Positions 19,602 to 54,639 of a DNA stretch of 64,000 bases are shown piece by piece. A model generated the notes under the pieces. That model saw nothing but the letters and a program-made list of their open reading frames with translations, did not search any database and was not told where the DNA came from. Source of the DNA: a virus; the IMG/VR virus record IMGVR_UViG_3300044614_002195, positions 1 through 64,000 of that record; one strand, written 5' to 3'. Each line of letters starts with the position of its first letter. Position 1 is the stretch's first letter. A program made the translations under genes and the position numbers.

Positions 19602-20258
19602 TTACGATTGTTCTTTTAAAAGCTTTTCAAGATAGGCTTTGTTTTCTTCTTTGTTAAGCATCTCTGCCATTTCTGGGTACTTAGAAACGAGTTCTATTTT
19701 TTTACTGTCATCAGGGGATGTTGCTGTGTGTGCTTGCTGCGGAACAGACACAGAGTCGATCACTTTATTAGCTAATCTCATTTGAGCTGCCCTAGCTAAT
19801 GCGTCTGTGACCAGATCTGCCTTTTTAGCTAGTTCTCCTGTTTTCTTAAAATTGTCCACAAAACCTTCGCCCATGTTTGGGGAAGACAATGAACCCACTT
19901 CTCCTGGAGACATATCAAAGATAGTTTTGGGCTTTGCTAGGTTTACGTTTATAATAGGTCTCAAGCCTCCAGGTTGTGCTGAGTGAGATAATCCTCCAAA
20001 TCTGTTATTCAACATCGACGGAAGTAAATTACCAGCTACAGGAGCAAGCCCCTCCATACCTTTTTCAACATACCCAACACCTTTTGATGTTAAATAATTT
20101 GCTCCTGCGCCTGCGGCTGTAAGTCCTCCGCCTACAAGAAGAGGTCTAGCTAGCTTGCCTGCGCCTGCAGCTATAGGGCTAAGTATCTTACCCAAATTTG
20201 CCTTTTTTTGAAAGCTGTCGTCTATACCCTTCGATAGTTCTGTCCAATCAAGTTTCAT
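19602..20258 (-). CDS. Putative internal head/ejection protein (glycine zipper, K-x-A motifs)
   Basis: Start reassigned to MKLDWTEL; FQKKA, AKKA; hydrophobic Gly-rich helix LLVGGGLTAAGAGA. Confidence 0.6.
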   Translation of the reverse strand: MKLDWTELSKGIDDSFQKKANLGKILSPIAAGAGKLARPLLVGGGLTAAGAGANYLTSKGVGYVEKGMEGLAPVAGNLLPSMLNNRFGGLSHSAQPGGLRPIINVNLAKPKTIFDMSPGEVGSLSSPNMGEGFVDNFKKTGELAKKADLVTDALARAAQMRLANKVIDSVSVPQQAHTATSPDDSKKIELVSKYPEMAEMLNKEENKAYLEKLLKEQS

Positions 20259-20259
20259 A

Positions 20260-21261
20260 TTAAGCGTAAGGTTCAAGCTCAACTCTGGTAGGCAGAGACT
20301 CACTCATATACTTCTCAGGCTCTTCACGCATCTTCTTTCTAAGGAGATATGTGAGATACGCTCCGCCTGCAGCTGTACCTACAAGACCAGTTGCGGCAGC
20401 ATCCATTGCTGGCTGGAATGGTTTTTTGGCTACACCTAAAGTATCTGAGAGTAATCTCTTGATGGCGCCTTCCTCAATCTCAGGCTCTTGAAAATCTGCA
20501 GTTTTACCAAATAACGTTGTGTGAGCTATACCGTTACAGAAAGCATCTACGCAAGGAGTTTCAATTTCAGCTGAACCTGTTTTAATTCTGGATAATGTGT
20601 TGATGTACTCCTTCTGTGCATCCATCAATTCTTTATGAATTCTGGCACGCTCTTGCATATAATAGTCTCTTTTAGCGTTATTAAAGCCTTCCTGTCCTCC
20701 TGAAAGCATACGTAAAGGTTCGTTGCTAGTTCTGAATGCCCTGGCAAATAACCCAGGTGAATCTCCATAACTTTCAGTACTTGCCATCTTCTCTGAGTCA
20801 TTATCAAGAGCTAGACGTAAGTTTCGCTGTTTAATTTTTTCATTGATGAGCGCATCAAGCAAAGCTCCTCCACCGAGACCTGCGGCCGCCCCAAGCAATC
20901 CTCCTTGCATAGTTCTTTTTGCGCCATGCAGAAAACCTCTTGATTGGTTTCGTAAAGCTGATCCTGCTCCCCCTCCTGCAATTCCGCCAAGTAATGCGAG
21001 CGGAGCTTTCGTCACATTGACGTCTTCACTGCTTTCGTTATCTTGAGCCATTTTATCTCTAACAGGAAGCATGCTTACAGGAACAGGGATTCTCAATGTG
21101 CCGTCGTCCTTGAACATCTCCTGTCTTTCTAGCAGCTTTCTTTTTTCCTGCTCTTTTGCCAACTGAAGGGCACTAAATAAACTTCTACCAAAAAGCTGAG
21201 ACGCTTCTTGAGTTTCTTCTGGAGATAAAGGTAGTGGTGTGGAGGCTTTTTTATGTTGCAT
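20260..21261 (-). CDS. Putative internal head/ejection protein (glycine zippers, K-x-A motifs)
   Basis: HKKA, DKMA, EKMA, GKTA; segments LLGGIAGGGAG, GGLLGAAAGLGGG, GLVGTAAGGAYL. Confidence 0.6.
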   Translation of the reverse strand: MQHKKASTPLPLSPEETQEASQLFGRSLFSALQLAKEQEKRKLLERQEMFKDDGTLRIPVPVSMLPVRDKMAQDNESSEDVNVTKAPLALLGGIAGGGAGSALRNQSRGFLHGAKRTMQGGLLGAAAGLGGGALLDALINEKIKQRNLRLALDNDSEKMASTESYGDSPGLFARAFRTSNEPLRMLSGGQEGFNNAKRDYYMQERARIHKELMDAQKEYINTLSRIKTGSAEIETPCVDAFCNGIAHTTLFGKTADFQEPEIEEGAIKRLLSDTLGVAKKPFQPAMDAAATGLVGTAAGGAYLTYLLRKKMREEPEKYMSESLPTRVELEPYA

Positions 21262-21267
21262 AATCTT

Positions 21268-21636
21268 TTATTTTTTTTCTTTTTTACTTCCGTAGATTAT
21301 AAACACTCTGAAGTTTCCCTGAGGGGTCCAGGTGTCTTTCCATAGCGTAATCATATAATTCTTATTGTTCATGAGCTCATTGAGCATGTCCTGATCTTTT
21401 TGCTGCTCTGGATCTAGGATGATGTTTTTGAAAACATAATCATCCATCTCCTGGGCTTTAGGTCTCTTCTTGATTCCCTTAGCCATCTCATAAGCATCAA
21501 TTACCGCTTCAGGATCAAATCCCTTGTTGGTAACTTCGTTACGCACATTTCTTTTTTTGCCTGTAATAGACAGGTCGTAGGCGCTTGCACCAAAATCAAA
21601 ATGTTCTGTAGCTCTAACTTCTTTAAATGAATCCAT
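21268..21636 (-). CDS. Hypothetical protein in the cargo operon
   Basis: Start reassigned to ATG 21636 (MDSFKEV), overlapping the upstream stop. Confidence 0.6.
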   Translation of the reverse strand: MDSFKEVRATEHFDFGASAYDLSITGKKRNVRNEVTNKGFDPEAVIDAYEMAKGIKKRPKAQEMDDYVFKNIILDPEQQKDQDMLNELMNNKNYMITLWKDTWTPQGNFRVFIIYGSKKEKK

Positions 21637-21982
21637 GTTCTTTTTTAAGGTTTTCTGTGATACGTCTGACCATGTTAATCTTCTCGCGCTCGCGATCAAG
21701 AGCTTTGTTCACCTCATGCACCGATTTGTCCATCTCATCTAGAGTCAATCCTCCCAAGGCTCCTCCTGTGAGTGTTGTCTTGAATGCAAATTCTGGAAGT
21801 GACCCTGCAGCACCCATAAAATTTCCAGCTATATTGGAAGTTGCTTCGGCTACCTTATAAACTCCTTCACCTGTATTAATAGTTTGTAAAGCCTGTTCAA
21901 ATTCTTCAATAGATGAACCCTGCTTGCTAAGTTCTTCGGCAAGCATGCTCTTGATAGCTTTTGCGTATTTTGTCATTTCCAT
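21623..21982 (-). CDS. Putative internal head protein
   Basis: TKYA, YKVA; TTLTGGALGGLTL followed by a coiled coil. Confidence 0.6.
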   Translation of the reverse strand: MEMTKYAKAIKSMLAEELSKQGSSIEEFEQALQTINTGEGVYKVAEATSNIAGNFMGAAGSLPEFAFKTTLTGGALGGLTLDEMDKSVHEVNKALDREREKINMVRRITENLKKEHGFI

Positions 21983-21984
21983 AC

Positions 21985-22356
21985 TTATATTTTAATTTTT
22001 ATTGTATCTTTGTTGCTATTATAGCTTGAAAATGTCTCAGGGTCATGAAATAAATCATAAACAGCTCGACCAAGACCAAACCCAGCCATAGTCACTAGCA
22101 TCTGTGCAGGCTTTGACATTTTCTCAAAGTTACCTACAGATCTTATCAGTGCTCCTCCTGCAGCTCCAGAGAGCAAGCTATTAAAAGTTTTTGGGTTATC
22201 AAGCATAGCCAATACCGACTGCTTTTTATTTTCGTCAAGCCCATGATCGTTGTTGATGATTTTTGAGAGCACAGAAGCGTTGCTCTGTAATACATCCATT
22301 CCATACATCTTTACACCATATGGAGATATTGCGTTTGGGCTATAGGTGTTTTGCAT
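21985..22356 (-). CDS. Putative internal head/membrane-active protein
   Basis: LLSGAAGGAL and MAGFGLGRAV Gly-rich helices. Confidence 0.55.
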   Translation of the reverse strand: MQNTYSPNAISPYGVKMYGMDVLQSNASVLSKIINNDHGLDENKKQSVLAMLDNPKTFNSLLSGAAGGALIRSVGNFEKMSKPAQMLVTMAGFGLGRAVYDLFHDPETFSSYNSNKDTIKIKI

Positions 22357-22359
22357 AAA

Positions 22360-23340
22360 TTATTTTGCCATGATAGCGGAGCTTGCAACCACTGGAGCAA
22401 CTGCTCCGGCTAGAGGCCAAACTAAAGAATCTGTTCTAGCTCGTGGGTCAATCATGCGCTCATGTACGCGCTCAGGATTAATTTTGTCTCTAATGTCATT
22501 AAAAATTTTTGCACCTATAAGAGAGCGTGCAATGGAGGTTATAGGTTTTTCGCTCATCGAGCTAATCATCCCTTTTCCAAACTCTCCAATACTGCTGAGC
22601 CCAGCGTTTATACTGTTAGCTGCGTCTGTAGCATCATTGAATATACCTCCATTTGAAGAAAGATCAAAGGCTTGTTTTATTGCATCCTGGCCACCTGATA
22701 TTAATGACGCAGTGTCTATAAGCACAGAGTTCACCTGAGGGTGTTCTTCTTCTTTTACGCTCTCAGGAGCGACTGCTGGCGCAACTTGCGTCGGACTGCC
22801 TGACTCCATGGCTTTCAGTTTTGCTATAAATTTTTTGGAGGGGCTATACCTCCAGTTCTGTCCCCCTTCATGCTGCAGCATAAATGTAGGGTTATCTCCT
22901 CCTGTTGCCAGTGTCATATAAATGTTGTCTGGACTGCTTCTATGAATTTGGGCTGTACCTTTACTCAAAGCGTCGTTCTCAAAGTTAAGAATGTTGTCGT
23001 CAGTCATCCTCGAAACTCTAGAGTCTTCTGACGGATATTGCTCAGGAAAACCTCCAAAGCTGTACACAAGATTTCCATCACTAAGCTTCAAGCCATCTTT
23101 AGTTCTAACATATCTCCATTTAGCCTGTCTGCTGATGTTAGGAAGAATGTTTTCGTTTACAGGCATGCTACTGAGGTCTGTAGCCGCTTTCTTTTCTTTT
23201 TTACTTTTTTTAGGTCTGCAGCTGTCTTCAGAGTATGGCTCTTTTCCAGGTACAGTCTCATAACCCTCCCAGCATCTTGCCTGCTTCTGTAGTTCTTCAT
23301 GTACGCCTAGATAGAAGGCTGGAAGGTATATTTGTTGCAT
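22360..23340 (-). CDS. Putative internal head protein
   Basis: Leader AFYLGVHEELQKQA, then EKKA and IKQA; hydrophobic C-terminus. Confidence 0.6.
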   Translation of the reverse strand: MQQIYLPAFYLGVHEELQKQARCWEGYETVPGKEPYSEDSCRPKKSKKEKKAATDLSSMPVNENILPNISRQAKWRYVRTKDGLKLSDGNLVYSFGGFPEQYPSEDSRVSRMTDDNILNFENDALSKGTAQIHRSSPDNIYMTLATGGDNPTFMLQHEGGQNWRYSPSKKFIAKLKAMESGSPTQVAPAVAPESVKEEEHPQVNSVLIDTASLISGGQDAIKQAFDLSSNGGIFNDATDAANSINAGLSSIGEFGKGMISSMSEKPITSIARSLIGAKIFNDIRDKINPERVHERMIDPRARTDSLVWPLAGAVAPVVASSAIMAK

Positions 23341-23342
23341 AG

Positions 23343-30444: not shown

Positions 30445-31367
30445 AAATCGCTGAATTAATGCAGTCGTATGACGCAATAGCTAAAAATCGTAACTACCCA
30501 GTCAAAACTGCTTTTGTGGCTAATCCTAATGTTCCTCCTCCTCAGCCAGGACAGCCTGTACAGCAGGCATTACCAGCTGGACAGCAAGACCCTAACCAGC
30601 AAGCAATGCAGCAACAGCAGGCAGCCCCACAACAACCTGTTCCACAGCAGGCTCCTGCACCGCAAGCGGCACCTCAAGATCCTAGCCAACAGACAATGCA
30701 GCAGTCTCCACCTGCCCAGCAGACCCAGGGAGACTCAAACGGTAACGGCACATTAATGGACGAAGTCATGAGTGCCGCCCAACAACTTCCACCTGAAGCC
30801 CAACAGCAGGTCGCACCCATACTTCAGCAGCTACAGCAAATGCCCGCAGATCAGAGAGAACAGCAGTTAATGCAAATTTTATCAGAGATTTCAGGGCAGC
30901 AGCAGCCTCAAGAACAAGCGCAGCCTCAACCCCAACCTCAACCCCAACCTCAACAAGATCAAGGCATGGTGGCTCAAGCGGCAGATGATATGATGATGCA
31001 GGCACCGCAGCAGGATCCCACGATGGAAGCCCAGCCCATGGACCCTCAGCAGCAGGCATCAGACGACGCAGCTCAGGCCGAAAATTCAGCAATAGAAGCC
31101 AAGAACGAGTTAGATAACGTAAGAGTATCTCTATCGGTAAGAGAACTTTTAGACCTGGTAGGCAAAGGTTCCGCCACAGCGTCATTATTAAAAGTTAAAC
31201 AACTAGCCGACACCCATCAGCAAAAGATGGAACAGACTAGACAAAAGGCCGAAAGCGATCAGCAAAAAGCTCAAGCAGACCAAGAGCAGCAGCAACAGCA
31301 GCAGCAACAAGGATTGATGGGTGACGGAGGTATATATTCAGCCCCTATGGGTGGTGCACCTCAATAA
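30441..31367 (+). CDS. Gln/Pro-rich low-complexity protein
   Basis: MKIA and VKTA leader; QP repeats at about 30920-30955; polyQ at about 31284-31310. Confidence 0.75.
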   Translation: MKIAELMQSYDAIAKNRNYPVKTAFVANPNVPPPQPGQPVQQALPAGQQDPNQQAMQQQQAAPQQPVPQQAPAPQAAPQDPSQQTMQQSPPAQQTQGDSNGNGTLMDEVMSAAQQLPPEAQQQVAPILQQLQQMPADQREQQLMQILSEISGQQQPQEQAQPQPQPQPQPQQDQGMVAQAADDMMMQAPQQDPTMEAQPMDPQQQASDDAAQAENSAIEAKNELDNVRVSLSVRELLDLVGKGSATASLLKVKQLADTHQQKMEQTRQKAESDQQKAQADQEQQQQQQQQGLMGDGGIYSAPMGGAPQ

Positions 31368-31377
31368 TTTTAAACAT

Positions 31378-31788
31378 ATGCCAGACTTTACAAAACTTGC
31401 AGCCTACCTGGACTCTTTTTCAAAAGAAAGTCCAGACTATGATACAGCTCAATATATAAAGTCAAAGATAGCTGCAGACCTTAAGGACACTAATACCGTA
31501 AACAACGGAGAAGATGCAGAGCTGGACGACAATGATGTAACCATGAGTACACCTGAGCAGCAAACTCAGGAAAACCAAGAAGGTGAAGAAATGCACGGAG
31601 CCTTCAAAGAGCTAGATGTCATGAATCAGCTTAAAGAAGAAAAAGAAGAAGTTAAGCTGCCCGGACAAAAAGACGAAAATGGAAATACCAAATTAGACGT
31701 ATCTACCGAAGAAACTTTCGGAGACAATGTTTTGAATCGTAAAAGCGCTTCACTCTTTGAAGTAATAAAACAAAAGCTTAAAAAATAA
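31378..31788 (+). CDS. Acidic putative internal head protein
   Basis: Start reassigned to MPDFTKLAAYL; TKLA and RKSA motifs; TAATG-coupled to beta'-C. Confidence 0.6.
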   Translation: MPDFTKLAAYLDSFSKESPDYDTAQYIKSKIAADLKDTNTVNNGEDAELDDNDVTMSTPEQQTQENQEGEEMHGAFKELDVMNQLKEEKEEVKLPGQKDENGNTKLDVSTEETFGDNVLNRKSASLFEVIKQKLKK

Positions 31789-33714: not shown

Positions 33715-35925
33715 ATGCGCAAAACAAATTTAAATAAAGCGGCTGCAGATGATCAAATTGAAGGAGCATTCTTCCAGCTGGCTTATCAGCGCCTGCAAGA
33801 TACTCTTAAAAAACTTATCCCATATCTCGTAGGTTTTGAGATTGTTAAAAAGAACGAGGATAATACAAAAGCTTTAGGTGTTTTTGGTTTTAGGTCCGAC
33901 GGAGGACAAATTCTTTTCGTTCCTGCCTTTTTTGTGGATGGTAAAGTAAAGCCATTGGACCTCCTATATAGTAAAAATAACGAGCAGTTCTATCCGTTAA
34001 ACGAAGATTTTGCTGAAATGTTTGTTAAGGAAGAAATGCTTGGACTAGGAGACAACTCCAAGGAAAACAGATCTGACATCATGCGTGATGCTACTCAGGG
34101 AGACTACAGACAAATGTCTGTACCTCCTCGTACAGGACGTTACGCAATAGCCTCTGTTATTGACTATGTTAAAGACGCAGGAGAGCCCACAAAGAAAGCA
34201 TTTACAGATCTAATTGAGAAAGACGCAGAGTTCTGCGAATCTCTGTTACGCTTTTATCCTCTAGAAAAAGTAGCCGAAGCTATTTCCCTTGAAGACGGCA
34301 AAGAATACCGCAAGTCCGATCAGGCAGCCAAGAAGATTGAATTGGTTAAACTTAAAGATAAGGGTAAGGTTAAAAAGCTTACAGATTCACAAAAAAAGAC
34401 CCTGCTAACCCAGGGTTATGTGATTGTAGACGATCGCGCCGCAAATGAGAAATCTACTTTTGGTGCTGTTGATTATCTTAAAAAGTTCATTAATCCTCCT
34501 GAGTCTGGCTTTTATTCTTATGTAACTAAACTAGGTGGCCTTCGCTACGGTCTTATCCTGGTGAGACCAAAGCAGCTCCAGCAGGATTTTGCCACTGACG
34601 ACGTACTTGTTTTAGATATCGAGTCCAAAGACGGCTCGACCTATATCAAAGATCACAAGCAGGTTTTTGTTAAAGATCAGATTAGAGTGCAGGACTATAG
34701 TGCTGTACATAAAATGATGGTGGACGCTGCTGAAGGTAAACCTGGGTATTCTAACGTTTACGTATTAATTAATGAAAATTTAAAGGCCACGCAGCCCTTC
34801 AGAATTAATGCAAATTTTAAAGACGCTTCAGGAATTCGCAGAATTGCAGTAGAGCCGCATAGCATATGGGCAGACTCATGCTGCGACGAAAAGGGAGGCG
34901 TAAAAGACAGACCAGGAAGCATTCATGATCTACCTAGAGGCAACTTCTACAACCACCCCAAGAAAGCTAGAGAAGTACATCTTGTCATGACCAAGAGACA
35001 AGGTGATCGCCTAGACTATCAGGATAATACCATTTACGTTCCTGCAGGATTTAAACTATTAAAGATTACTCCAGCATGCTGCTTTCCCGGCTGGAGAGAA
35101 ACAGGCTTCTCCGGCAATGAAAACGACGGAGACGCTAAAGCTCACGAACAAAAGCTTAGAGGTGAACCTGGCACACCGGGGAAACTGCACGCAATGCTGG
35201 AAGATAAAAACGTCTTCCCTATGACTGTACACACCAACGGCAGTGAATACTTCGTAGACATCAAGGGAGCAAAGAAAAAATACGAAGATCCGATTAAAGC
35301 TAAAATAGCGATGGTCATGGATATCGGACTAGACGAAAAGGCAGCAGAAGATCTACTGGATAGCCTGGTCCCAGGGTTTTCCAAAAAGGGGCACTTGAAG
35401 ATGGCCTATACAGGAGACATTTATCCTCAGCCTTTTGAAGAGCAGCCATACACCAACGAGTTTGGACAAAGTACGTATGTGGGTGTAGGACAGGAGAACA
35501 CACTGCCGACCCTGGATAGCTATGTTGGAAATCCTACCCGTCAAGATCTTGGCACAATGCCTGAGGTTAAGGGTATCGACCCTAGATACGTGCAACAAGC
35601 TATACAATTAGCCCAAAACGGACAAAAGGAAATTTTCGACACTCAAATGATTGGCGCTTTAGCCAAGTACGTTTCTGTGGGAGATAAAATTTCCGAGTAT
35701 TTACCATCTATGGTTGAGGCGATGGATAGACTTGGAAGAATCCTGTTTTTATTGCACTGGGAAACAGACAAGTTTAAAGAGATGTACGGCCGAGGGGATC
35801 TACCTGAGTTGGTAGAATTAGTGACTAGTGTTCTTAAGAATATTGGAGACCTGATCATTTTCTTGAAGCGGAAATCTCCCGAGTTGTCAATTAACATGAC
35901 CCAAACGGAAAGCACAGAAATTTAA
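33715..35925 (+). CDS. Large hypothetical head-associated protein
   Basis: 736-aa ORF at the start of the head region, with NKAA and LKMA motifs; family not recognised. Confidence 0.75.
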   Translation: MRKTNLNKAAADDQIEGAFFQLAYQRLQDTLKKLIPYLVGFEIVKKNEDNTKALGVFGFRSDGGQILFVPAFFVDGKVKPLDLLYSKNNEQFYPLNEDFAEMFVKEEMLGLGDNSKENRSDIMRDATQGDYRQMSVPPRTGRYAIASVIDYVKDAGEPTKKAFTDLIEKDAEFCESLLRFYPLEKVAEAISLEDGKEYRKSDQAAKKIELVKLKDKGKVKKLTDSQKKTLLTQGYVIVDDRAANEKSTFGAVDYLKKFINPPESGFYSYVTKLGGLRYGLILVRPKQLQQDFATDDVLVLDIESKDGSTYIKDHKQVFVKDQIRVQDYSAVHKMMVDAAEGKPGYSNVYVLINENLKATQPFRINANFKDASGIRRIAVEPHSIWADSCCDEKGGVKDRPGSIHDLPRGNFYNHPKKAREVHLVMTKRQGDRLDYQDNTIYVPAGFKLLKITPACCFPGWRETGFSGNENDGDAKAHEQKLRGEPGTPGKLHAMLEDKNVFPMTVHTNGSEYFVDIKGAKKKYEDPIKAKIAMVMDIGLDEKAAEDLLDSLVPGFSKKGHLKMAYTGDIYPQPFEEQPYTNEFGQSTYVGVGQENTLPTLDSYVGNPTRQDLGTMPEVKGIDPRYVQQAIQLAQNGQKEIFDTQMIGALAKYVSVGDKISEYLPSMVEAMDRLGRILFLLHWETDKFKEMYGRGDLPELVELVTSVLKNIGDLIIFLKRKSPELSINMTQTESTEI

Positions 35926-35937: not shown

Positions 35938-36882
35938 ATGGCGGAGCAGCAAAACACCTCATATTTAGAGAGGTTAGCCGCATTGAAGTTGTTGCGTGAA
36001 AACATGTATTACGCACAACCCTCTAGGTATGCGGCAACTGATTTTGCTGACGATTTACCAGGGCCACTTAGAGCTGTTGCACCTAACATAGGTGAGATAG
36101 CTCCTTCTATGGCGATTATTTCAAAAGACCCTGAGGAAAGGAAAAGTCAAATTCGTGAAGCCATAAATAGAATCAAACAAACAGGCAACGCTTCTACTAA
36201 CCTAGGTAAAGAGATTTTACATAACGTTAAAGACATGGGACTCGGCGCCATAGCCCCTGGGCTTGCACTAGCCACTGCCTTTAATTTAATGGGTTTTAGA
36301 TCGCCTGTAGCAAAACTTAAATCAGGTAAAAAAGTATGGAGATCCCCAGCAACTCCAATAGAAAATATTAAAAAGCTATTTAATAAGCCTGGTTACGCTA
36401 AAGAAATTGCAAAAGAAAGTGGAAAGGAAGCACTGACTGGTGCAGGAATCGCAGCTATATCCGCAGGAGCATATCCCATTTTCGCAAGAGCCACAAAACC
36501 TTCAGATAAAGCACTGAGTGAAGCCGCAAGCGTAATACAAGATCAGCCCAACCTCAGCGCTATTCCAGCCTCTGAGTATATGAGTATTATGCGTAAGAGT
36601 AAAGAAGACGCCGGCTCTCCAATCTCTCAAAAAATAAAAGCCATAGCACAGGGGACAGGAATAGGTGCAGGGGTTGGAGCAGCAGCCGCACTAGCCCCTA
36701 GCGCTTTAAAGGTACTTGCACTAGCCGCAAGGAATGCCATAACTAGAAGACCAATATCCGCCGATATGGGTGGAATAATTAAAAAAGATCTACCTAGAGA
36801 CTTGAGTCTCGGCAGCATTACCGGCGGAGCGCTAGGAGCAGCGGCAGGACCGTTTACAGAAAAGCTACCAGAAAATGAATAA
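35938..36882 (+). CDS. Putative internal head/ejection protein with glycine zippers
   Basis: GTGIGAGVGAAAALA and GSITGGALGAAAG helices. Confidence 0.6.
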   Translation: MAEQQNTSYLERLAALKLLRENMYYAQPSRYAATDFADDLPGPLRAVAPNIGEIAPSMAIISKDPEERKSQIREAINRIKQTGNASTNLGKEILHNVKDMGLGAIAPGLALATAFNLMGFRSPVAKLKSGKKVWRSPATPIENIKKLFNKPGYAKEIAKESGKEALTGAGIAAISAGAYPIFARATKPSDKALSEAASVIQDQPNLSAIPASEYMSIMRKSKEDAGSPISQKIKAIAQGTGIGAGVGAAAALAPSALKVLALAARNAITRRPISADMGGIIKKDLPRDLSLGSITGGALGAAAGPFTEKLPENE

Positions 36883-37993: not shown

Positions 37994-39490
37994 ATGGACG
38001 AGCCTAACATTCTAATCAAAACAGCCCTAAGCGAAGCAGTGCAAAAGGTAAATGCCGGCATGTCTCCTACCGAGGCGCTAAAGAAAGTCGCAGAAGACTT
38101 GGACCTTAACCCCAATTATATTCAAAGAACCGGAGAAGCCTTGAACGTAGCTTTAAACTACAAGCATTTTAAGACAGCTTCAGACAGATCCACAGATTTT
38201 GAAATTGCAGACATCTCTAAAGCAATTCAAGACGCATTCACATTCACAGAAAAAACGGCAGCAGAAAAAATATCTGAGCGTTTCTCTGTAGCTGAAACAA
38301 ACGAGCATATTTTTAACTATAATAGAGCTCTTAGTAATCCCATGTACAAAAGAGCGTTTTTAGAAATTGCTAATGCTCCTGAAGTAAATGAAAGCTATCC
38401 AACAACTTTTAATACTGTCTACGAAAAGTCTGCAAATTATATTCAAAGCCTAAACAAGCAGGCAGAAGAAGCTGAAGTGGCTAGAGTTGAAGCAGAGTTT
38501 GAACTGAATGCAAAGTTTTCAGAGCTTTCAGACGCTTTTAGAAAAGACGCAGGATATAGAACATCTTTTGACGAGTTTGAATCACAGGTTTTCTCTAAGT
38601 ATGGACAAGCGGCTTTACCTTATCTAGATCTTTTACACAAGACTGCAGCCCAGCACGAAGAAAGAGGCGTTCACGATTCTGGCTATATTATGTTTGAGCA
38701 GTGCAAGGAAGCTCAAATGTTTGAAGGCTTAATGTCCGCAGCCAGCCAATGGACTGCAGCCACAAAGACAGCAGAAGAAATTTCAGAAAATTTAAATTTC
38801 GAAAAAGCTTATCTCAAAGACTCCTGCAGACTTCTAGGCAAGCAGTCAGCAACTAAATGCTGCGGAAAATGTACAGGAGAGTGTAAGTGTGGTAGTTCTT
38901 GCTCTTGTCAAAAAAGTGAAGACGCCGACAAAGAAAAGAGTGCAGAAGAATCCGTCCAGCCTCATATTGAAGCGGATCCTGTCCTTGAAGAGATTAAAAA
39001 AAAAGCTTCAGATGAAAGCTACAAAATAGCTAAAGACTATACTAAAGACCCTGTCCTGAAAGAAGCCATGGAAAAAGAGGCTTTTTTGGGTCTGGGAAAA
39101 TCCACTGGATTTGGGGGACTTATTAGCGAGCACGTTTCTGAAGCTTTTTCCGCAGGCTTTAAACCGCATAATACTGCACCCAAACCTAACATGACTTTAG
39201 ATAATATGGAGCGCAAGCTCTTATTACAAGAGCTCATGATGACAGATCCTATTTTGTCAAAAATAAACCCAGCCAGAGTCGCTAGAGCCTTTGAACAACT
39301 TCTGAGGTTATCTCCAGAAATCTCAAAAGAAAAAGAGGTCGTCAGGGCAGAATTAAGAGCCATGGTATCGTCACAGGCGTTAAGTAAGTTTGATGCAGAT
39401 CTTATGGCTAAAACAGATGTAGGAATGCTAAAGCGTCGAATAGCTACACAAAACTTTAACTCAGGTCATATGGACACCTTTAGAATATAA
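37994..39490 (+). CDS. Putative internal head protein rich in K-x-A motifs, with a Cys cluster
   Basis: More than a dozen K-x-A motifs (IKTA, FKTA, EKTA, EKSA, NKQA, HKTA, TKTA, EKEA and others); CCGKCTGECKCGSSCSC at 38858-38908. Confidence 0.7.
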   Translation: MDEPNILIKTALSEAVQKVNAGMSPTEALKKVAEDLDLNPNYIQRTGEALNVALNYKHFKTASDRSTDFEIADISKAIQDAFTFTEKTAAEKISERFSVAETNEHIFNYNRALSNPMYKRAFLEIANAPEVNESYPTTFNTVYEKSANYIQSLNKQAEEAEVARVEAEFELNAKFSELSDAFRKDAGYRTSFDEFESQVFSKYGQAALPYLDLLHKTAAQHEERGVHDSGYIMFEQCKEAQMFEGLMSAASQWTAATKTAEEISENLNFEKAYLKDSCRLLGKQSATKCCGKCTGECKCGSSCSCQKSEDADKEKSAEESVQPHIEADPVLEEIKKKASDESYKIAKDYTKDPVLKEAMEKEAFLGLGKSTGFGGLISEHVSEAFSAGFKPHNTAPKPNMTLDNMERKLLLQELMMTDPILSKINPARVARAFEQLLRLSPEISKEKEVVRAELRAMVSSQALSKFDADLMAKTDVGMLKRRIATQNFNSGHMDTFRI

Positions 39491-40273: not shown

Positions 40274-42595
40274 ATGGAAAATAAATTTAAAAATATCAAT
40301 GAACTGCAGCGATTAGTTATGCAGAAAGCAGCAGGCGCGGAGTTAAACCGTTATTATGACGCAGCCAATGACGAGAATGCAAAGATTGGGTTACCTCAGA
40401 CAGGCAAGTTACCTGCAAGGGTCAGAGCAAAAAACCCAGCAAAAGCACGCATACCAGTCACCCAAGCTGCAGCACCAACTCCCGCGCCGGCCCCTGCACC
40501 AGCTCCTGCACCCGCGCCAGCCCCTGCACCAGCTCCTGCACCCGCGCCAGCCCCTGCACCTTCAGCAGCTACAAGCAGCGCAGCAAAGCCTAGACGCACC
40601 CAAGCAAGGAATAAACCGAGCGGAGCTTCACAAGCAATGCCTCCGGCGGCTCAATTTGAACAAAGAATGCTATCCAGGGGAGGCAAGGCAGCGTTAGGAC
40701 TTGGAGCAATGCAGGGCGCTTATGATCTATGGAACGCAGACGATAAAGTCGAGGGATTAGGTCAGGCTGTCGGAGATGTACTTCCAGGAGCAGCGATGTA
40801 TGGATTAACTAGACCAGGTACCGGAGCAGGCGCATCCAATATGGCCGGACGCGCAGGCAAAGCCTTAAGTAATTTATCACAACGTACAGGCTTAACGGAA
40901 ATGGCGAAGGATATAAATCAAAATGCTATAGCTCCAGCGATGAAGAAAATCACCCCAAGCCTTCAGGCGGCAGGGCAGACCATTAGAAATAAAATGCCTG
41001 CAGGAGCATCAACTGTCGCAAATAAAATTATGCCTAATCTAGGTAGAGCTGCAGGCTTTCTCGGAAAGAGATTAATTCCGGGACTTGGCGCAGGTATGTC
41101 CGGCGCCTCAGCTGTCAGTAGATGGAAAGAAGGCGACCGCCTCGGCGCATTAATGGACGCCGGACTGGGGGCAGCAAGCTTTATTCCAGGAGTAGGAGGA
41201 GCTGTAAATTTAGCAGGCTCAGGATTAATGGGACTTAGAGACAGTTATAGAAATAAAAATGCACCAACTCAAGAATTACCCAAAACTGGAGCATTCAACC
41301 TATACAAGCACGCCATATCGAATTTTAGGCGAGATATAGAAGATCCGTCTACAGGATATAATTCTGACTTACATCAAGCCATAGCGCCTATGGTTTCGCC
41401 AAATGTTCAAAATTTACCTGCAGGCTCTCCAGACGCAAAAAGAATTAGCGGGCTACAGGGAGATTTAAGAAAAGGCCTTGTAGGCCTTGAGTATCTAACA
41501 GGATTAAAGAAGAATACTGGCGAATCTTTTTATGACGAACATCCAGCTGAGGCAGTAGTAACCGATTTGCTAGGCAATTCCCCATTGATCGGCGCTGGGG
41601 TAGCTGGAGGAGGAATTGGATTAAATTATTTAAGACAGGCAAAAAACATGAGGATGACACAACCCTCAGCTATGTCTAGAGAGGGAAATATACAGGACCC
41701 TAGCAACTCTGCAAATCTCTTAGATCCTGCTAAAGGAAATTTACGAGCAGATGTTGGTCGTGTTTTCGGTGATGAAGAAAATGTTACTGCACGCTTAAAG
41801 ATATTAGATAGACTCAATAAGAATGCACCAGATAAAGGTTTCGAAAAACAATATCAACGTTTGGCTGACGCAAAAGCAGCTATAGAAAGAAAGAACAGTC
41901 AGATTTTAAACGAGCTTAATTCAAGCCTGGAATCTTCAAAAATCAGTGAAAAAGATATCAAGCGAATACAGACTAGAATTAATGCAATTGAAAAAGCTCA
42001 AGCTCACCAGACTGGGGCTATAGATAAGGATATAAAGGCTTTACTCACAAAGGCAAAAAGCTCTAGAGGGGCCTCAGCTTTACCTGAATACGCTAATTTT
42101 CATGAGTCTCTTCAAAAAGCAAATCGCCAGGGAGGACTTAAGAATTACATAGGAGAGGGTCTTCACGATTATCTCGGAGACGGAGAAATTGCTAGCTGGA
42201 TTAAGAAAAATATTCTTCCCGGAAGAGATCAAGCTATAGGAGATCTTCTTGAAAGGCATAAGTTGACAGGACAAAACCCTCATTTCGATGACATGCTCAT
42301 CAAGGATATTATAAGAGAAAACAAAGGAGGAGCACCACTTCATCCTGGGTTTAACGAAACAACCTTAAGGCGTATAGCCGACCCTGAGCACCAGTCTTCA
42401 GGATTGAGAAGAAGCTTTAGCAAGATGAAACTTCCTCTAGCTGCCGGCGCAGGGATTGCAGCAGGAGGCACAGGGCTTTATTATCTGCTCAAAGCAATAC
42501 AGAATCAAATGCATCCGAAAGAAAAAACCGATGAGTGGAAGAGAACTCTCTTAAAAGCTCGCGGAGATTTTGACGCAGCAAATAGAATAGGATAA
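40274..42595 (+). CDS. Large putative ejection/internal head protein
   Basis: QKAA leader, (PA)n linker, multiple Gly-zipper helices, coiled coil, and C-terminal LAAGAGIAAGGTGLYYL. Confidence 0.65.
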   Translation: MENKFKNINELQRLVMQKAAGAELNRYYDAANDENAKIGLPQTGKLPARVRAKNPAKARIPVTQAAAPTPAPAPAPAPAPAPAPAPAPAPAPAPAPSAATSSAAKPRRTQARNKPSGASQAMPPAAQFEQRMLSRGGKAALGLGAMQGAYDLWNADDKVEGLGQAVGDVLPGAAMYGLTRPGTGAGASNMAGRAGKALSNLSQRTGLTEMAKDINQNAIAPAMKKITPSLQAAGQTIRNKMPAGASTVANKIMPNLGRAAGFLGKRLIPGLGAGMSGASAVSRWKEGDRLGALMDAGLGAASFIPGVGGAVNLAGSGLMGLRDSYRNKNAPTQELPKTGAFNLYKHAISNFRRDIEDPSTGYNSDLHQAIAPMVSPNVQNLPAGSPDAKRISGLQGDLRKGLVGLEYLTGLKKNTGESFYDEHPAEAVVTDLLGNSPLIGAGVAGGGIGLNYLRQAKNMRMTQPSAMSREGNIQDPSNSANLLDPAKGNLRADVGRVFGDEENVTARLKILDRLNKNAPDKGFEKQYQRLADAKAAIERKNSQILNELNSSLESSKISEKDIKRIQTRINAIEKAQAHQTGAIDKDIKALLTKAKSSRGASALPEYANFHESLQKANRQGGLKNYIGEGLHDYLGDGEIASWIKKNILPGRDQAIGDLLERHKLTGQNPHFDDMLIKDIIRENKGGAPLHPGFNETTLRRIADPEHQSSGLRRSFSKMKLPLAAGAGIAAGGTGLYYLLKAIQNQMHPKEKTDEWKRTLLKARGDFDAANRIG
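40481..40560 (+). repeat. 30-nt tandem repeat (2.7 copies) encoding (PA)n
   Basis: CCCGCGCC(G/A)GCCCCTGCACCAGCTCCTGCA units start at 40481, 40511 and 40541. Confidence 0.95.
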
Positions 42596-44103: not shown

Positions 44104-45228
44104 ATGTCAAACAACTACATGAAAACACTGGCCGCCTCTTTTCTGAGAGCTAAATTAGCAGCACAAACTCCAGAAGAAAAGATGCATGAACAAGCTGAAA
44201 CCCCTGAGCAAGAGCAACTCGAGCACGCTGCAGGAGGCTATGAAGAAGGTGGCGAACTTCCAGGCAACGAAGCTCACGAAGAAATGGAAACACCTGAGGC
44301 TGAAAGCCTAGAGCATGCTCCTGGCGGCTATGAAGAAGGCGGCGAAGAAATGCCTGCAGGAAACCCCGACGAGGACGCTCATCTTGATCAGATGTTATCG
44401 CAGCTATCTCCAGAAGAATTAGATCAACTCGCTGAGCAGCTTGCAGGCGAAATGCAGGGTGGTGGAGTAGCTGGACCTGGAGCTGAAGGCGAAGACGTCG
44501 GAGAACTTGCTCAAGCCATCGAGCAGCATTTAGCACAAAATCCAGAAGCAGCAGTACCCCAAGCAGAGCCACAAAAAATGGCAGCTCTAGAATTTGTTAA
44601 GTCCGCCTCATACATCGAAGGATTTTTAAATCAGGCAATTGAAAGAGGTGTAAGTGTCAAGCAGGCTGTGGATATGTATGACCAGTCTCTTACAAACACG
44701 ATTCAAGCACTTAAACAGGCAGAGTTGAAAGGTAATCAGCATAAATTAGATGTTGATCACGACGGTAAGATCGAAGCAGAAGATCTTAAAAAGCTTAGAG
44801 AAGGGAAAAAAGCTAAAACAGCTGAAGAATTAAGAGAAGAAATTAAGACTGCTGCCTACTACGAAGGCGTAATTGAAAGAGCCAGAGAATACGGATTTTC
44901 TGACTACGAGGCTGTTAATTTTGTTAAGCAAGCAGCAACCAAAGGTTTTAGCCAATACGGCTCAAAGGGACAAAAAGGAAGTATGTTTGCTAAGAAAGCT
45001 AAAACACAAGCTAAAACACAAGCTAAAACACAAGCTAAACCACAAGCTAAAACAAAAGATGCGCCAAAAGCCTCCCAACCAACTTCATCTTACGATAGAC
45101 TAAAGCAAGATGCTGCAGCAATGAAGAACAAGGCAGTAAAGTACGTCAAAGATAATCCAATTAAATCTACAATAGCTGGAGCAGGCGCAGCAGGTTTAGC
45201 TGGAGGTTACCTGAGCAGCAAAGATTAA
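44104..45228 (+). CDS. Scaffold/prohead-core-like protein
   Basis: Glu-rich duplicated N-terminus, EF-hand-like DVDHDGKIEAED, many K-x-A motifs, and a basic AKTQ tail. Confidence 0.65.
   Translation: MSNNYMKTLAASFLRAKLAAQTPEEKMHEQAETPEQEQLEHAAGGYEEGGELPGNEAHEEMETPEAESLEHAPGGYEEGGEEMPAGNPDEDAHLDQMLSQLSPEELDQLAEQLAGEMQGGGVAGPGAEGEDVGELAQAIEQHLAQNPEAAVPQAEPQKMAALEFVKSASYIEGFLNQAIERGVSVKQAVDMYDQSLTNTIQALKQAELKGNQHKLDVDHDGKIEAEDLKKLREGKKAKTAEELREEIKTAAYYEGVIERAREYGFSDYEAVNFVKQAATKGFSQYGSKGQKGSMFAKKAKTQAKTQAKTQAKPQAKTKDAPKASQPTSSYDRLKQDAAAMKNKAVKYVKDNPIKSTIAGAGAAGLAGGYLSSKD
44998..45057 (+). repeat. 12-nt tandem repeat (five copies) encoding AKTQ
   Basis: GCTAAAACACAA x3, GCTAAACCACAA, GCTAAAACAAAA. 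Confidence 0.95.
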
Positions 45229-45303: not shown

Positions 45304-46221
45304 ATGGCTAAACTAACAAAACATGCAGAAGTACTTAACCAATTACATACCATGGTTAAGAAGCAGGCTGAAGAAGCTCAGAAGAATATTTCCGGCGTCC
45401 CCGGCGGAGATGTCAAATCTGTAAGCGTCAGCGATGAGCACGAAACAACAAATAAGAATTCGGTGGGTCCAGAGAATGTAGCTCAGGGATATCATCAAAA
45501 GCCATCAGAAGATTCTTCTAAACCTCTTGCAAACGCTAAAAGCGCCAGTGAGTTAGGTACAGAAATTTTAGACATTATCCGCAAGCAGGCTGAAGCTCAG
45601 GACAGCGTCACTGGCGCACCTGGCGACGTGAAGTCCGAAAGCGTTGGCGACAATCAGGAAAAAGTGGACAAGAACAGCGTCAAGCCTGAAAATAACAAGC
45701 AGGACTATGAGCAGAAGGCATCCACAGACGAATCAAAGCCATTAGCTTCAGCAAAAAAGGCAGAAGTTGAAGAGCTTGCAGCCAAAGTTGCCTCTTACGA
45801 ATTGGGTCGCCAGTTTTGTGCAGCACTTTTAAAGGCCGCTGGAGAAGACCAGAGACAAGATGAAGCAGAACTCATGAAGCAGGCAGGCCGCAGGGATTTT
45901 GATCTTTTAATCTCTGAAGCTGCTGAAAGTCTTGAGGCTCAAGCCGAAGAAGAGGAGCAGGTCAAGCAGGCAGAACAGGCAGGCGCCACTTATTTTGACG
46001 AATTACTCAAGGAAGCTGCACTACAGGAAGCTGCCGAAGAAAACAAGCAGCTCAAGAGTAAGCTTGCTGAATACGAGCAGTTCGTTAAAGAAGCTCAGGC
46101 TCAGCAGGAAGCAGCAGAATATCAACAGGCCTTTGAACAGCAGCAGGTCAAACTTGCAGAGTCAGTAGCAGCTACAGTTCTCGAAAGACTGAAGAGCGAA
46201 ATGGCTCAGCCTGCACAGTAA
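45304..46221 (+). CDS. Scaffold-like protein with two 60-aa repeats and a coiled coil
   Basis: Repeats KQAE...PG.DVKS.SV.D..E...KNSV.PEN..Q.Y.QK.S.D.SKPLA.AK[SK]A; acidic coiled-coil C-terminus; AGGAG upstream. Confidence 0.7.
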   Translation: MAKLTKHAEVLNQLHTMVKKQAEEAQKNISGVPGGDVKSVSVSDEHETTNKNSVGPENVAQGYHQKPSEDSSKPLANAKSASELGTEILDIIRKQAEAQDSVTGAPGDVKSESVGDNQEKVDKNSVKPENNKQDYEQKASTDESKPLASAKKAEVEELAAKVASYELGRQFCAALLKAAGEDQRQDEAELMKQAGRRDFDLLISEAAESLEAQAEEEEQVKQAEQAGATYFDELLKEAALQEAAEENKQLKSKLAEYEQFVKEAQAQQEAAEYQQAFEQQQVKLAESVAATVLERLKSEMAQPAQ

Positions 46222-46233: not shown

Positions 46234-46389
46234 ATGCCTGCTGACTCTCTAGATCCAATTTCTATAGAGCAGCAGGCATTGAACGCCTTAGATTATTTAA
46301 GTGACGAAGATAAGAGTAAGGTTCTCAAATACATTGAGAGCCTTATACAACTACAATCACCATCAAATGACAAAACAAGCGCTATATAA
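46234..46389 (+). CDS. Small hypothetical protein (51 aa) whose start codon lies in an 18-bp hairpin
   Basis: Manually translated MPADSLDPISIEQQALNALD...; stem 46234-46279. Confidence 0.45.
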   Translation: MPADSLDPISIEQQALNALDYLSDEDKSKVLKYIESLIQLQSPSNDKTSAI

Positions 46390-46762
46390 AGTAGAAGAAT
46401 TTGTTAAGGTTGCTCTTGATGAGATTTCTGATCTTCAACAAAAGCTAGCGCAACAAAAAACAAAGCAGGCAGAGCAACAAGCTGAACTCGATAAGAATTT
46501 AGACACGGCACTTAAAAAGGCTGCAGCTGCAATGTATAGCTCTGATTTTATTAATGATGAAGAAGAAAAATCTTTGTTCATTAAAAAAGCAAAAGAAGAC
46601 TCATGCTATCTAGCTAAAGTTGTAGAACGTGTTTGCCAGGCCGCAGATGTCGCATATATGGGTAAGTCGGCCAGCGTTAAATCCAGCAGCCAATCCGAAG
46701 ATCCTGTTATGCGTAGAGCTTTTGGATACGATCAAAATTACAGTCTTTTAGACGACGAATAA
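46367..46762 (+). CDS. Scaffold-like coiled-coil protein
   Basis: Start reassigned to MTKQALY; TKQA, VKVA, QKLA, KKAA and GKSA motifs. Confidence 0.65.
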   Translation: MTKQALYKVEEFVKVALDEISDLQQKLAQQKTKQAEQQAELDKNLDTALKKAAAAMYSSDFINDEEEKSLFIKKAKEDSCYLAKVVERVCQAADVAYMGKSASVKSSSQSEDPVMRRAFGYDQNYSLLDDE

Positions 46763-47738: not shown

Positions 47739-48698
47739 ATGGAAAAAATCGCAAATCAAAGAGTTTTCAACGATACGTTCGTTGAAATGGTTAAAGCTGG
47801 CGAAGAGAAGAAGGCAGCAGTGTCTGCACAGTCCTTCACCCGCAACAAGCTTCGTGAAGAAAGCTTCACGGAAAAGATTATCACCCCTATCGACATCAGC
47901 AATGATGACCTCGACAAGGCCCAGAATCCTGAGATGCTTGTTAAGTGGAATGATCGTGAGCCTGATACTGCACCTGCAGTGACAATCCCATTGGGTGTTG
48001 TTCCTGACATGTTCCAGTTCTCTGGTACGCGTTATCCTTCCTACTTCACTCGTATCACGAGCCCGAAGTTCAACAAGGACATCGATCAGCTCCGTAGCTA
48101 CGACTACGACATTCGTGCAATCATGCTCGAATTGAGTACCAAGGACATCGCGACCGAAATCGACACACGCTTCATGGAGCGCGTGGATAGCATCATCGGT
48201 CCAGTTAACGCAGCTAACACCCTCAACGGCCTCGAGCTCCCACAGAATGTCACCATTAGCGGTGGTATTACCCGTGAGAACGTCGCAGAAGCATTCAAGG
48301 TCATTCAGCGCTTGAAGGTGCCGTTTGGTCCTTCCCAGCCTGATGGCGGCGAAAGCAAGGGCGTTATGCTCATGAACAACGTCACTGCGCAGGACTTCGT
48401 CAAGATGAGCCGTAGTGAAGTTGGCGGCGATCTCGCACAGGAAATGTTCGTCAGCGGTCTTCCTTCCAAGACTCTCTTGGGGGTTAAGCCGATCTATACG
48501 ATCAAGCGCGATCTCGTGCCTGATGGCGTTATCTATCTGTTCTCTTCCGAAGAATTCTTCGGCAAGTACTACAGATTGCAGCCATTGACAGTGTTCATGA
48601 AGAACGAAGCTTACTTCCTCGAGTACTTCCAGTACATGAACCTCTCGCTCGCAATCGGTAACGTTAAGGGTGTTGTCCGCGTGGACTTCAACGCTTAA
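47739..48698 (+). CDS. Major capsid protein (HK97-type)
   Basis: 319 aa; RNKLREESF.EKII, DIATEIDTRF, and P-domain-like LLGVKPIYT..RDLVP.GVIYL; strongly biased codons; SD and terminator flank it. Confidence 0.85.
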   Translation: MEKIANQRVFNDTFVEMVKAGEEKKAAVSAQSFTRNKLREESFTEKIITPIDISNDDLDKAQNPEMLVKWNDREPDTAPAVTIPLGVVPDMFQFSGTRYPSYFTRITSPKFNKDIDQLRSYDYDIRAIMLELSTKDIATEIDTRFMERVDSIIGPVNAANTLNGLELPQNVTISGGITRENVAEAFKVIQRLKVPFGPSQPDGGESKGVMLMNNVTAQDFVKMSRSEVGGDLAQEMFVSGLPSKTLLGVKPIYTIKRDLVPDGVIYLFSSEEFFGKYYRLQPLTVFMKNEAYFLEYFQYMNLSLAIGNVKGVVRVDFNA

Positions 48699-48754: not shown

Positions 48755-48770
48755 AATGCCTACATGCCGC

Positions 48771-48799
48771 TTGATATATAGTGATATTATATCTATAAT
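48771..48799 (+). promoter_or_regulatory. Sigma70-type promoter for the neck operon
   Basis: TTGATA-N17-TATAAT, 7 nt before ATG 48807. Confidence 0.75.
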
Positions 48800-48806
48800 A
48801 GCTTTT

Positions 48807-49055: not shown

Positions 49056-49057
49056 TA

Positions 49058-49710: not shown

Positions 49711-49711
49711 C

Positions 49712-51254: not shown

Positions 51255-51267
51255 AAATCAAAAATAG

Positions 51268-51296
51268 TTGCAACACTAAAAAAATTCAGTTAAACT
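51268..51296 (+). promoter_or_regulatory. Sigma70-type promoter for the sheath gene
   Basis: TTGCAA-N17-TAAACT, with AGGAG downstream. Confidence 0.6.
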
Positions 51297-51338
51297 TATA
51301 TAGTATAAATCAAAAAAAATACACAGGAGAAATAAAAT

Positions 51339-54300: not shown

Positions 54301-54401
54301 TACAAGTCAATCCTACCTATAAGGACAGGATTGATGTAGAAGTCAGGCTCAATGTTCCATATCCCTTGAACTTCATTAACTTGAAATTGATAGTGGAGTA
54401 A
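51339..54401 (+). CDS. Tail sheath protein (large, with beta-rich insertions)
   Basis: N-terminal YITPRVLIQQEF...PAFIIGP; C-terminal AAAGLAGLRSG..PHQGLTN, VRHQLTT, NVDNISY, and DVEVRLNVPYPLNFINLKL. Confidence 0.88.
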   Translation: MYITPRVLIQQEFAQVAVYREFPMPAFIIGPHYGLTRYNVSSEKPNTILNSLDGELLTSGNSYIADQDTRYSFSNIKPGGEVDHTFTKVYAEGVEAQYFPNEDLGSDDIAFLDAVELIEGPVGKPYANKVRFSNLILKTENGYDRSEYFSNRDVNVGDLINITDDLGNTLKARITDLVAETSDTDVSLASEIAEVKYDGNDGVTNGTRTFVSASADFAASEVVGQYITIYHIENTPGVFKILACTDNHTLVLDKVAPSHSNRAWSIGGVYNDVNNTAWQSSSYNSAPVSIGTTNATVVVDNVSEAYVGYAAKGIVTDTYTATVTTSGNATTARFSVSSANGAFSTKTDLSLDDLFLSLDEANGNAAGIEFTEAEGATLAFAKGNSWSIGQFIAAVEPTNPTTDGEYTGTVDATYTIRVDRGGAFFDGSNAATCARITINSSSVDASTTILPRIDTSFNVGSHGVTAMFESATNNGGLIVGDTYYIPVRSARLGAVRIVELSEALPQVTLEAASSLTVTLAIHQASINIPEMRSLVDDSVNWSQEENYITINAGITSYNSSLLSSTLEPARLPINSAKLFAEHRDLLQDYVNAIDDVRSLADVERKLGTIHPDNPLAQGVYDAVLNAANAIVYFIAVETDDLSGYAKSIKISEKSDKVYSFVPMTFDRTIQDAVVSHVNAYSTPEVGRWRICWLAAKDEPTRLIYDLKEDGSDYQATITDDTAVSGTQNKLVTIQGAKFIEDGVRPNDTLRINFRLRADGKRTYDEYVVDRVRTNTTLVLTRSLATPISSPVKAQVVRNFTKSERATNIAYTAGEYNNRRVRMVFPDTYKYGGVVKQGYFAAAGLAGLRSGVVPHQGLTNSEFLGADDLTKVVIDFTADDLNTIAEQGVWVITQEVIGATPYVRHQLTTDERSLNTSEDSITTNVDNISYALKHTLTPFIGRYNINDDNLLAVYAAVVKELTFRASSTRTIRAGNQLTSFTPADDILLLQVNPTYKDRIDVEVRLNVPYPLNFINLKLIVE

Positions 54402-54405
54402 ACAT

Positions 54406-54639
54406 ATGACCTCCTTTTCAGCAGGGTTCATAGCTGAAGCCGCAGTAATGGGGTTGTCCTCTTCGGAGGCAACCCAGTTACTTAAAAGAGCTGCAGAATA
54501 TCCAGGGATGGAGCAATTAACATCTCATGAGCACAACACTGAAGAAGACCCTTCCTCCATGGATGTGTTAAAAGAACTTCTACAGCAGGACATGATAAAC
54601 AAAAATTTTGGTGGGTATAAACACAAAATTAATATCTAA
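54406..54639 (+). CDS. Small protein with the head-type helical leader
   Basis: SFSAGFIAEAAVMGL...LLKRAA. Confidence 0.55.
   Translation: MTSFSAGFIAEAAVMGLSSSEATQLLKRAAEYPGMEQLTSHEHNTEEDPSSMDVLKELLQQDMINKNFGGYKHKINI

Follow-up and report, generated by a model that had tools for sequence, protein, structure and literature searches.

What does the prohead protease of a large uncultured virus cut, and can its cleavage code be read from the genes around it? The question is raised by a plus-strand block of head genes in virus record IMGVR_UViG_3300044614_002195, which is 198,289 bp long and rated complete by CheckV, and whose first 64 kb form the window. The region holds split genes for a multisubunit RNA polymerase. 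In the head block that follows, the protease gene (42600-44051) is succeeded by genes for three proteins dense in the tripeptide Lys-x-Ala (K-x-A) and then by the capsid gene, an order that is the same in the cultured phages D69 (Vibrio) and Arash (Salmonella). A preliminary description of the window had proposed that K-x-A, recurring across about 20 putative head proteins, marks the cut site of an assemblin-like protease with herpesvirus-like specificity. We conclude that K-x-A is quite probably the recognition and cleavage motif of the 42600-44051 protease.

We translated 61 non-overlapping open reading frames (ORFs) of the window and compared each K-x-A count with the number expected from the protein's own Lys and Ala content, taking significance from 2,000 shuffles of the whole protein and 2,000 shuffles within 30-residue blocks. 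Six neighbouring ORFs exceed chance under both types of shuffle: 33715-35925 (11 copies against 4.6 expected, p = 0.004), 37994-39490 (16 against 5.1, p < 0.0005), the protease ORF 42600-44051 (12 against 4.5), 44104-45228 (11 against 5.4), 45304-46221 (13 against 4.6, shuffle p < 0.0005) and 46301-46762 (8 against 2.0). The block-shuffle p is at most 0.004 in five of the six and 0.013 in 44104-45228. Summed over the six, 71 copies stand against 26.2 expected, an excess of about threefold. A blind scan that covered every residue-gap-residue motif with gaps of 0-4 puts K-x-A first of 2,000, with z = 8.8, and the runner-up motifs with real counts reach a z of about 4. The excess reported in the preliminary description thus persists after correction for Lys and Ala content, and its coordinates and counts hold, with 16, 11 and 13 copies in 37994-39490, 44104-45228 and 45304-46221.

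The number of proteins involved is smaller than had been claimed. The remaining 55 window ORFs, the minus-strand block 19602-26715 among them, are at expectation (103 against 110), so that 'about 20' head proteins is an overcount. When all 212 ORFs of the genome are ranked, the same six come out at the head together with one ORF outside the window, at genome 93207-94262; these seven proteins hold 86 copies against 28.6 expected. Farther along, at roughly genome 162-170 kb, the ORFs listed in the ranking are no more than marginally enriched (169438-169692, for instance, with 5 against 1.7). With the N-terminus of the capsid protein included, seven window proteins carry the signal, and ORF 93207-94262 brings the number to about 8.

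The enriched proteins are rich in Lys, Ala and Glu and probably helical, and K-x-A might be no signal at all but a structural or compositional by-product of such scaffold proteins. The block shuffles, together with the register, residue and protein controls, exclude an effect of composition alone. The shifted register K-x-x-A is not enriched in a scan of the enriched proteins, and related motifs show no excess in the seven proteins (R-x-A, 8 against 9.2; K-x-S, 20 against 19; K-x-G, 11 against 16.4; K-x-E, 15 against 26.6). A 1,528-residue window protein that is itself rich in Lys and Ala is at expectation (17 against 17.2), and two Ala-rich proteins of the same head block avoid the motif. BLAST self-comparison found no internal repeats that would explain the counts and no paralogy among the seven proteins. 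Taken with the behaviour of T4 core proteins described below, these observations make a by-product origin very improbable. Nor did the scan return a code of the Glu type: among the top 15 motifs of the six proteins there is no x-E motif with a one-residue gap, and K-x-A is the sole outlier.

The residues around the motif are also selected. As the preliminary description had noted, the residue after Ala is often Ser, Ala, Glu or Gly; this is so at 67% of the sites in the enriched proteins and at 28% elsewhere, which equals background (p = 1.5e-10). The second residue past Ala is Asp, Glu or Tyr at 45% of sites in the enriched proteins and at 21% elsewhere, and hydrophobic residues are favoured at the first and second positions before the motif Lys. 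A K-x-A lies within the first ten residues of six of the eight proteins (the seven and the capsid protein), compared with 12 of the 204 other ORFs. The extended motif would then read hydrophobic at P5 and P4, Lys at P3, any residue at P2 and Ala at P1, followed by Ser, Ala, Glu or Gly.

To judge what such an excess means, we applied the identical blind scan to four T4 proteins (gp67, gp68, gp21 and gp22) as a positive control. It placed I-x-E (15 against 5.8) and L-x-E (16 against 6.9) on top, and gp22 alone holds 16 cut motifs against 5.7 expected, the same roughly threefold excess as in the window phage. K-x-A is not clearly enriched in the four T4 core proteins (12 against 7.1). Because the scan recovers the established gp21 code, an excess of one motif in the core genes that neighbour a protease gene is a valid indicator of how that protease cuts.

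The protease itself (483 residues, plus strand) matches a head maturation protease family (phrog_18299, E = 1e-8). Its AlphaFold model has a mean predicted local distance difference test score (pLDDT) of 83.7 and a confident catalytic domain at about residues 45-217; most of residues 45-215 score above 90. The model matches the fold of T4 gp21 (5JBL; Z = 12.7, 150 residues aligned, root-mean-square deviation 3.3; Foldseek probability 1.00) and, with lower scores, the proteases of varicella zoster virus (1VZV, Z = 8.6) and human cytomegalovirus (HCMV; 8J3S, Z = 6.7). Sequence and profile searches of the PDB with the protease, the capsid protein and the 33715 product returned nothing. In an alignment of 74 diverse homologues with 24-50% identity, Asn65, Asn67, Asp69, His104, Ser155 (in the VSMA motif) and Asp163 are invariant. 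On the basis of the model, the 42600-44051 product is a serine protease of the T4 gp21/herpesvirus assemblin fold with His104 and Ser155 as putative catalytic residues. The family is large: an exhaustive profile-free search at E <= 0.001 gave 2,455 representative clusters at 50% identity. In many relatives the prohead protease is interrupted by one or two inteins (Hint plus LAGLIDADG domains), for example in L011:8342-10957 and P0005; on the window protease the point of insertion corresponds to about residues 157-165, adjoining Ser155 and the invariant Asp163.

K-x-A sites fall at the domain borders of this enzyme. A disordered linker follows the catalytic domain (residues 218-253, pLDDT below 50) and carries KLA|S at residues 223-225 and KTA|S at 232-234; these are the LKLA-S (222-226) and YIKTA-S (230-235) that the preliminary description had correctly located at about nucleotides 43263-43304. 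Another site, KYA|S at 258-260, adjoins a confident helical C-terminal domain (260-483), within which KLA at 457-459 leaves a tail of 24 residues. The 74 homologues together hold 856 K-x-A copies against 266 expected. A site in the linker after the catalytic domain is present in 73 of the 74, with Ser at P1' in 55, and 70 also have a site on the N-terminal side of that domain. The site near the C-terminus, at Y-x-x-Y-K-L-A, is found in 38.

The motif could in principle be cut by another protease, from the host or a second phage enzyme. The motif sits, however, in the linkers of the 42600-44051 protease's own family in 73 of 74 homologues. It also accompanies this family in Vibrio, Salmonella, Bacillus/Lysinibacillus and Rhodococcus phages, so that a shared host enzyme is unlikely. 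We consider cutting by a different enzyme improbable, with the 42600-44051 protease the preferred candidate.

Conservation shows selection on the sites. We aligned orthologues from eleven uncultured relatives, whose proteases are 60-79% identical. In every enriched family the Lys and Ala of the motif are better conserved than the other Lys and Ala of the same protein, and the middle residue is free. For the protease, the conservation of the motif Lys is 0.98, compared with 0.68 for other Lys, and for the 45304 protein the values for motif Lys and Ala are 0.94 and 0.96, compared with 0.76 and 0.61. At the site at residue 8 of the 33715 product, Lys and Ala are kept in all relatives while the middle residue is Ile, Thr, Tyr, Leu, Gln or Ala. 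Across three near-complete relatives, 57 of the 75 sites in enriched proteins are kept in all genomes, compared with 31 of 136 elsewhere. When these three genomes are added to the genome-wide ranking, six of the seven families come out on top, with family-wide p-values of 5e-6 to 4e-27 that treat related sequences as independent; the 44104 family, with two members, is tenth.

The motif recurs in distant relatives. The few cultured phages with a homologue of the protease are Vibrio phages D69, D181 and D148 and Salmonella phage Arash (all at about 30% identity), phage G (gp19) and Rhodococcus phage Finch (gp17). Blind scans put K-x-A on top both among the genes around the D69 protease (51 against 22, z = 6.1) and in Arash gp218-225 (44 against 19.7, z = 5.5). 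Phage G has 8 copies against 2.4 expected in gp19 and 7 against 2.8 in gp21. Finch uses Lys or Arg, with 29 [KR]-x-A against 13.3 in gp17, and gp19 of phage G and gp17 of Finch both keep K/R-x-A on either side of the protease domain.

The same distant phages bear on the idea that K-x-A marks modified lysines rather than cut bonds, either through an E1/E2 system of the ubiquitin type, by analogy with sumoylation at hydrophobic-K-x-E, or through capsid cross-linking. A hydrophobic residue often precedes the motif Lys, and D69 (OZ195729.1:173999-174484) and Arash (OQ632216.1:176809-177291), which share the motif, both encode a ThiF/E1-like protein. However, no ThiF homologue was found in phage G or Finch, which nonetheless keep K/R-x-A flanking the protease domain. 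The Ala two residues after the Lys and the small or acidic residue at the third position are strictly selected; the sites occupy disordered linkers, domain borders and extreme N-termini, as processing sites do; and the T4 control shows that cleavage codes give exactly such a signature. Lysine modification is therefore a highly unlikely explanation, and cleavage by the prohead protease remains our preferred one.

The candidate substrates that lie between the protease and capsid genes are all on the plus strand. The 44104..45228 product (374 residues, 11 K-x-A) is an acidic protein and probable scaffold in which a short helical module with F-V-K-x-A at its end recurs, and resembles its D69 counterpart and Arash gp223; the family among relatives has 106 copies against 57.4 expected. 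The 45304..46221 product (305 residues, 13 K-x-A) is a probable scaffold or core protein, a designation that rests on its enrichment and family conservation (172 against 58.8 in 12 members). Cutting at all of its sites would give 14 fragments, two of 57-59 residues and the rest of 8-29. The third, listed as ORF 46301-46762, probably starts at Met23 (nucleotide 46367) and not at the annotated GTG, because its homologues are 129-134 residues long; as 46367..46762 it is a small head protein of 131 residues with the N-terminus MTKQA and 8 K-x-A, and the family among relatives holds 84 copies against 23.5 expected.

Two larger candidates are encoded upstream of the protease gene on the same strand. 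The internal head protein encoded at 37994..39490 (498 residues) has its 16 sites all within residues 1-363, followed by a C-terminal domain of 135 residues free of K-x-A (family count 174 against 54.6); it probably consists of a degraded propeptide and a retained C-terminal domain. The large virion protein encoded at 33715..35925 (736 residues) is homologous to Arash gp218, for which 1,149 virion spectra were recorded (PMC10585845). Its K-x-A sites are grouped in three places (residue 8, residues 153-187 and residues 517-564), and its family has 98 copies against 46.3 expected. The ESM Atlas gave no match for it. We considered this protein as the portal and rejected the assignment, since homology to Arash gp204 places the portal gene at genome 150113-151879.

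The most K-x-A-dense ORF of the genome, at 93207-94262 (L048:7208-8263), encodes 351 residues with 15 copies against 2.5 expected (p = 6e-8), and 59 against 9.6 over four genomes. Its locus is remote from the head block and close to the gene for the large terminase (genome 96553-98268); the product is probably another core protein. Searches of the substrate proteins against PHROGs, Pfam and NCBIfam gave nothing; Pfam returned only sub-threshold matches, to EF-hand for the 44104 product and to DUF6582 for ORF 93207.

The major capsid protein (47739..48698, plus strand, 319 residues) is recognized by homology to Arash gp226 (29% identity, E = 1e-34), the annotated major capsid protein of that phage with 1,333 virion spectra (PMC10585845). 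It is a candidate for the HK97 fold: besides the Arash match, the ESM Atlas scored it 0.98 as 'phage major capsid protein', and there is a weak NCBIfam hit (E = 0.013). A profile comparison with the capsid protein of phage G was weak (probability 8%). The preliminary description had pointed to EKIA and EKKA at the N-terminus; the protein indeed starts with MEKIA and has EEKKA at residues 22-26, and all K-x-A sites of the protein lie in its first 27 residues (K3-I-A5, K24-K-A26 and K25-A-A27). K24-K-A26 aligns exactly with K27-E-A29 of Arash gp226, and the corresponding D69 sequence is TKEA|G, so that one K-x-A position is common to all three lineages. From these sites we predict a capsid propeptide of about 26 residues.

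Better-known phages offer a template for how these sites might be used. T4 gp21 activates itself by an N-terminal cut and then breaks gp22, gp67 and gp68 down into small peptides; it also takes the short capsid-targeting leaders off internal proteins and the propeptide off the capsid protein (PMC9958956). SPN3US propeptides contain the A-x-E motif several times over, and in giant phages of this kind numerous internal head proteins undergo processing, as does the C-terminal part of the protease by its own action (PMC10052503). If the window phage follows T4 and the phiKZ-type phages, its protease would be built into the procapsid together with the core and scaffold proteins and would release itself by cutting K-x-A in the disordered stretches that flank its catalytic domain. 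The site-dense products of 45304, 44104, 46367-46762 and ORF 93207, together with the first 363 residues of the 37994 protein, would then be chopped mostly to short peptides, of 8-59 residues with all sites cut, that leave the head. If all sites were cut, every piece of the 45304 protein and of ORF 93207 would be 59 residues or shorter, whereas the 44104 protein would keep an acidic N-terminal stretch of 141 residues and a C-terminal piece of 54. Cuts between its modules, each ending in V-K-x-A, might abolish multivalent binding to the shell. The 37994 protein would lose its first 363 residues and keep the site-free 135-residue domain; the 33715 protein would be cut at its three site clusters into a few large pieces; short N-terminal leaders would be clipped; and the capsid protein would lose about 26 residues. 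We infer from this analogy that the sites are cut, that the bond broken is the one after Ala, and what becomes of the pieces.

The proposed system resembles that of T4 at several levels. The protease fold is shared, the protease gene has core and scaffold genes as neighbours and shortly precedes the capsid gene, and the core proteins are enriched about threefold in the cut motif. Short N-terminal leaders end in the motif, a capsid propeptide is predicted, and a site N-terminal to the catalytic domain recalls the self-activation of gp21. The two systems differ in the code, which is K-x-A here (Ala at P1, Lys at P3) and (L/I)-x-E in T4 (Glu at P1, Leu or Ile at P3). They also differ in the 220-residue helical C-terminal domain of the window protease, which gp21 lacks, and in the length of the capsid propeptide (about 26 residues predicted here, 65 in T4 gp23), and their sequence similarity is undetectable. 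With phiKZ (protease gp175) and SPN3US (gp245) the window phage shares the multisubunit RNA polymerase of large myoviruses, present in the virion in Arash. It probably also shares multiple processed internal head proteins, multi-motif propeptides and C-terminal self-processing of the protease. Those phages, however, cut after Glu, at (S/A/G)-x-E and A-x-E, whereas the window phage has Ala at P1 and Lys at P3. By analogy, the window system appears to work like the core processing of T4 and of phiKZ/SPN3US, with the same protease fold but without the defining cut after Glu.

The comparison with the herpesvirus assemblins is more mixed. Herpesvirus sites (the R and M sites of the UL26 family) have Val, Leu or Ile at P3, following (V/L/I)-x-A|S, and the Lys of the HCMV site YVKA/S is at P2. 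The herpesvirus-like P3 Lys of the preliminary description is therefore mistaken, and the window code, with Lys at P3 throughout, differs from that of the assemblins. The likeness that stands is in the predicted Ala at P1 and in Ser as the commonest P1' residue (55 of 73 at the release-like site). The fold is shared as well, and the layout is perhaps comparable: a helical domain that may act as a scaffold makes up the C-terminal part of the protease, one site directly follows the catalytic domain, and a second leaves a tail of 24 residues. Against this, the window protease is structurally closer to T4 gp21 than to assemblin, and the C-terminal site occurs in only 38 of the 74 homologues. It is conceivable, although we think it doubtful, that the family cuts after Ala, usually before Ser, in a herpesvirus layout of scaffold-like fusion with release and maturation sites, that this Ala-Ser specificity and the fusion are older than the divergence of phages from herpesviruses, and that the Glu-specific enzymes of T4 and phiKZ are derived.

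Several points weigh against K-x-A as the cleavage code. No cleavage product has been seen, and the Arash paper and its supplements hold no peptide-level data (PMC10585845). Literature searches turned up no experimental work on proteases of this family, and no paper on a K-x-A code, on an Ala-specific phage prohead protease or on processing in phage G. Copies of the motif at protease residues 72, 117, 138, 145 and 159 lie inside the folded catalytic domain of the model, where cutting is unlikely, so not every K-x-A is a cut site. To these must be added the non-independence of the sequences behind the family-wide p-values. Finally, the capsid protein is identified through its homologue Arash gp226 and a language-model match, because an AlphaFold model from a shallow alignment failed (pLDDT 31). 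In favour of an assemblin-fold protease with this code stand the fold, the invariant His and Ser, the conservation of the sites and their positions at domain borders, the recurrence in distant phages and the T4 control; the number of proteins and the P3 likeness are the parts of the original proposal that fell away.

If the assignment is correct, a family-wide K-x-A code would be the first non-Glu rule for the gp21 fold in phages, with Ala at P1 and Ser at P1' recalling the herpesvirus enzymes; the gp21-fold phage proteases whose specificity we found in the literature (T4, phiKZ, 201phi2-1 and SPN3US) all cut after glutamate. The rule would extend over the 2,455 clusters of a family found in phages of at least four bacterial host genera, with cultured members in Arash, D69 and its relatives, phage G and Finch. 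Sequence would then suffice to predict which proteins lie inside the head, where their mature ends fall and which proteins avoid being cut.

Two Ala-rich proteins of the head block, both encoded on the plus strand, would be of this last kind. The 35938..36882 product has a single K-x-A against 4.4 expected, and its family of 11 has 6 against 36.7; the variable protein encoded just upstream of the protease gene, at 40274..42595, belongs to a family of 12 with 23 copies against 60.3. This depletion suggests selection against cut sites, and the 35938 product is possibly a head protein that needs to stay intact. A weak further candidate substrate is the 155-residue product of 31321..31788 (plus strand), whose N-terminal part shows conserved K-x-A-A at two sites, residues 25 and 49, and which has 3 copies against 0.9 expected (12 against 3.6 in its four-genome family, p = 4e-4).

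A distant blastn search of the head block matched only a low-complexity stretch. This stretch, at 40417-40577 within 40274-42595, matches unrelated phage genes for endolysins and single-stranded DNA-binding proteins and is probably a linker of the Gly/Ala type. The portal gene assigned above by homology to Arash gp204 (E = 9e-52) is on the minus strand, about 100 kb away from the block of protease, scaffold and capsid genes. The split beta/beta' pieces of the RNA polymerase, identified by PHROG hits at 27191-30184 and 31788-33641, are slightly poor in K-x-A (3 against 7.6 and 3 against 4.4 expected, respectively), and their Arash counterparts are among the most abundant proteins of the virion in the proteomics of that phage (PMC10585845).

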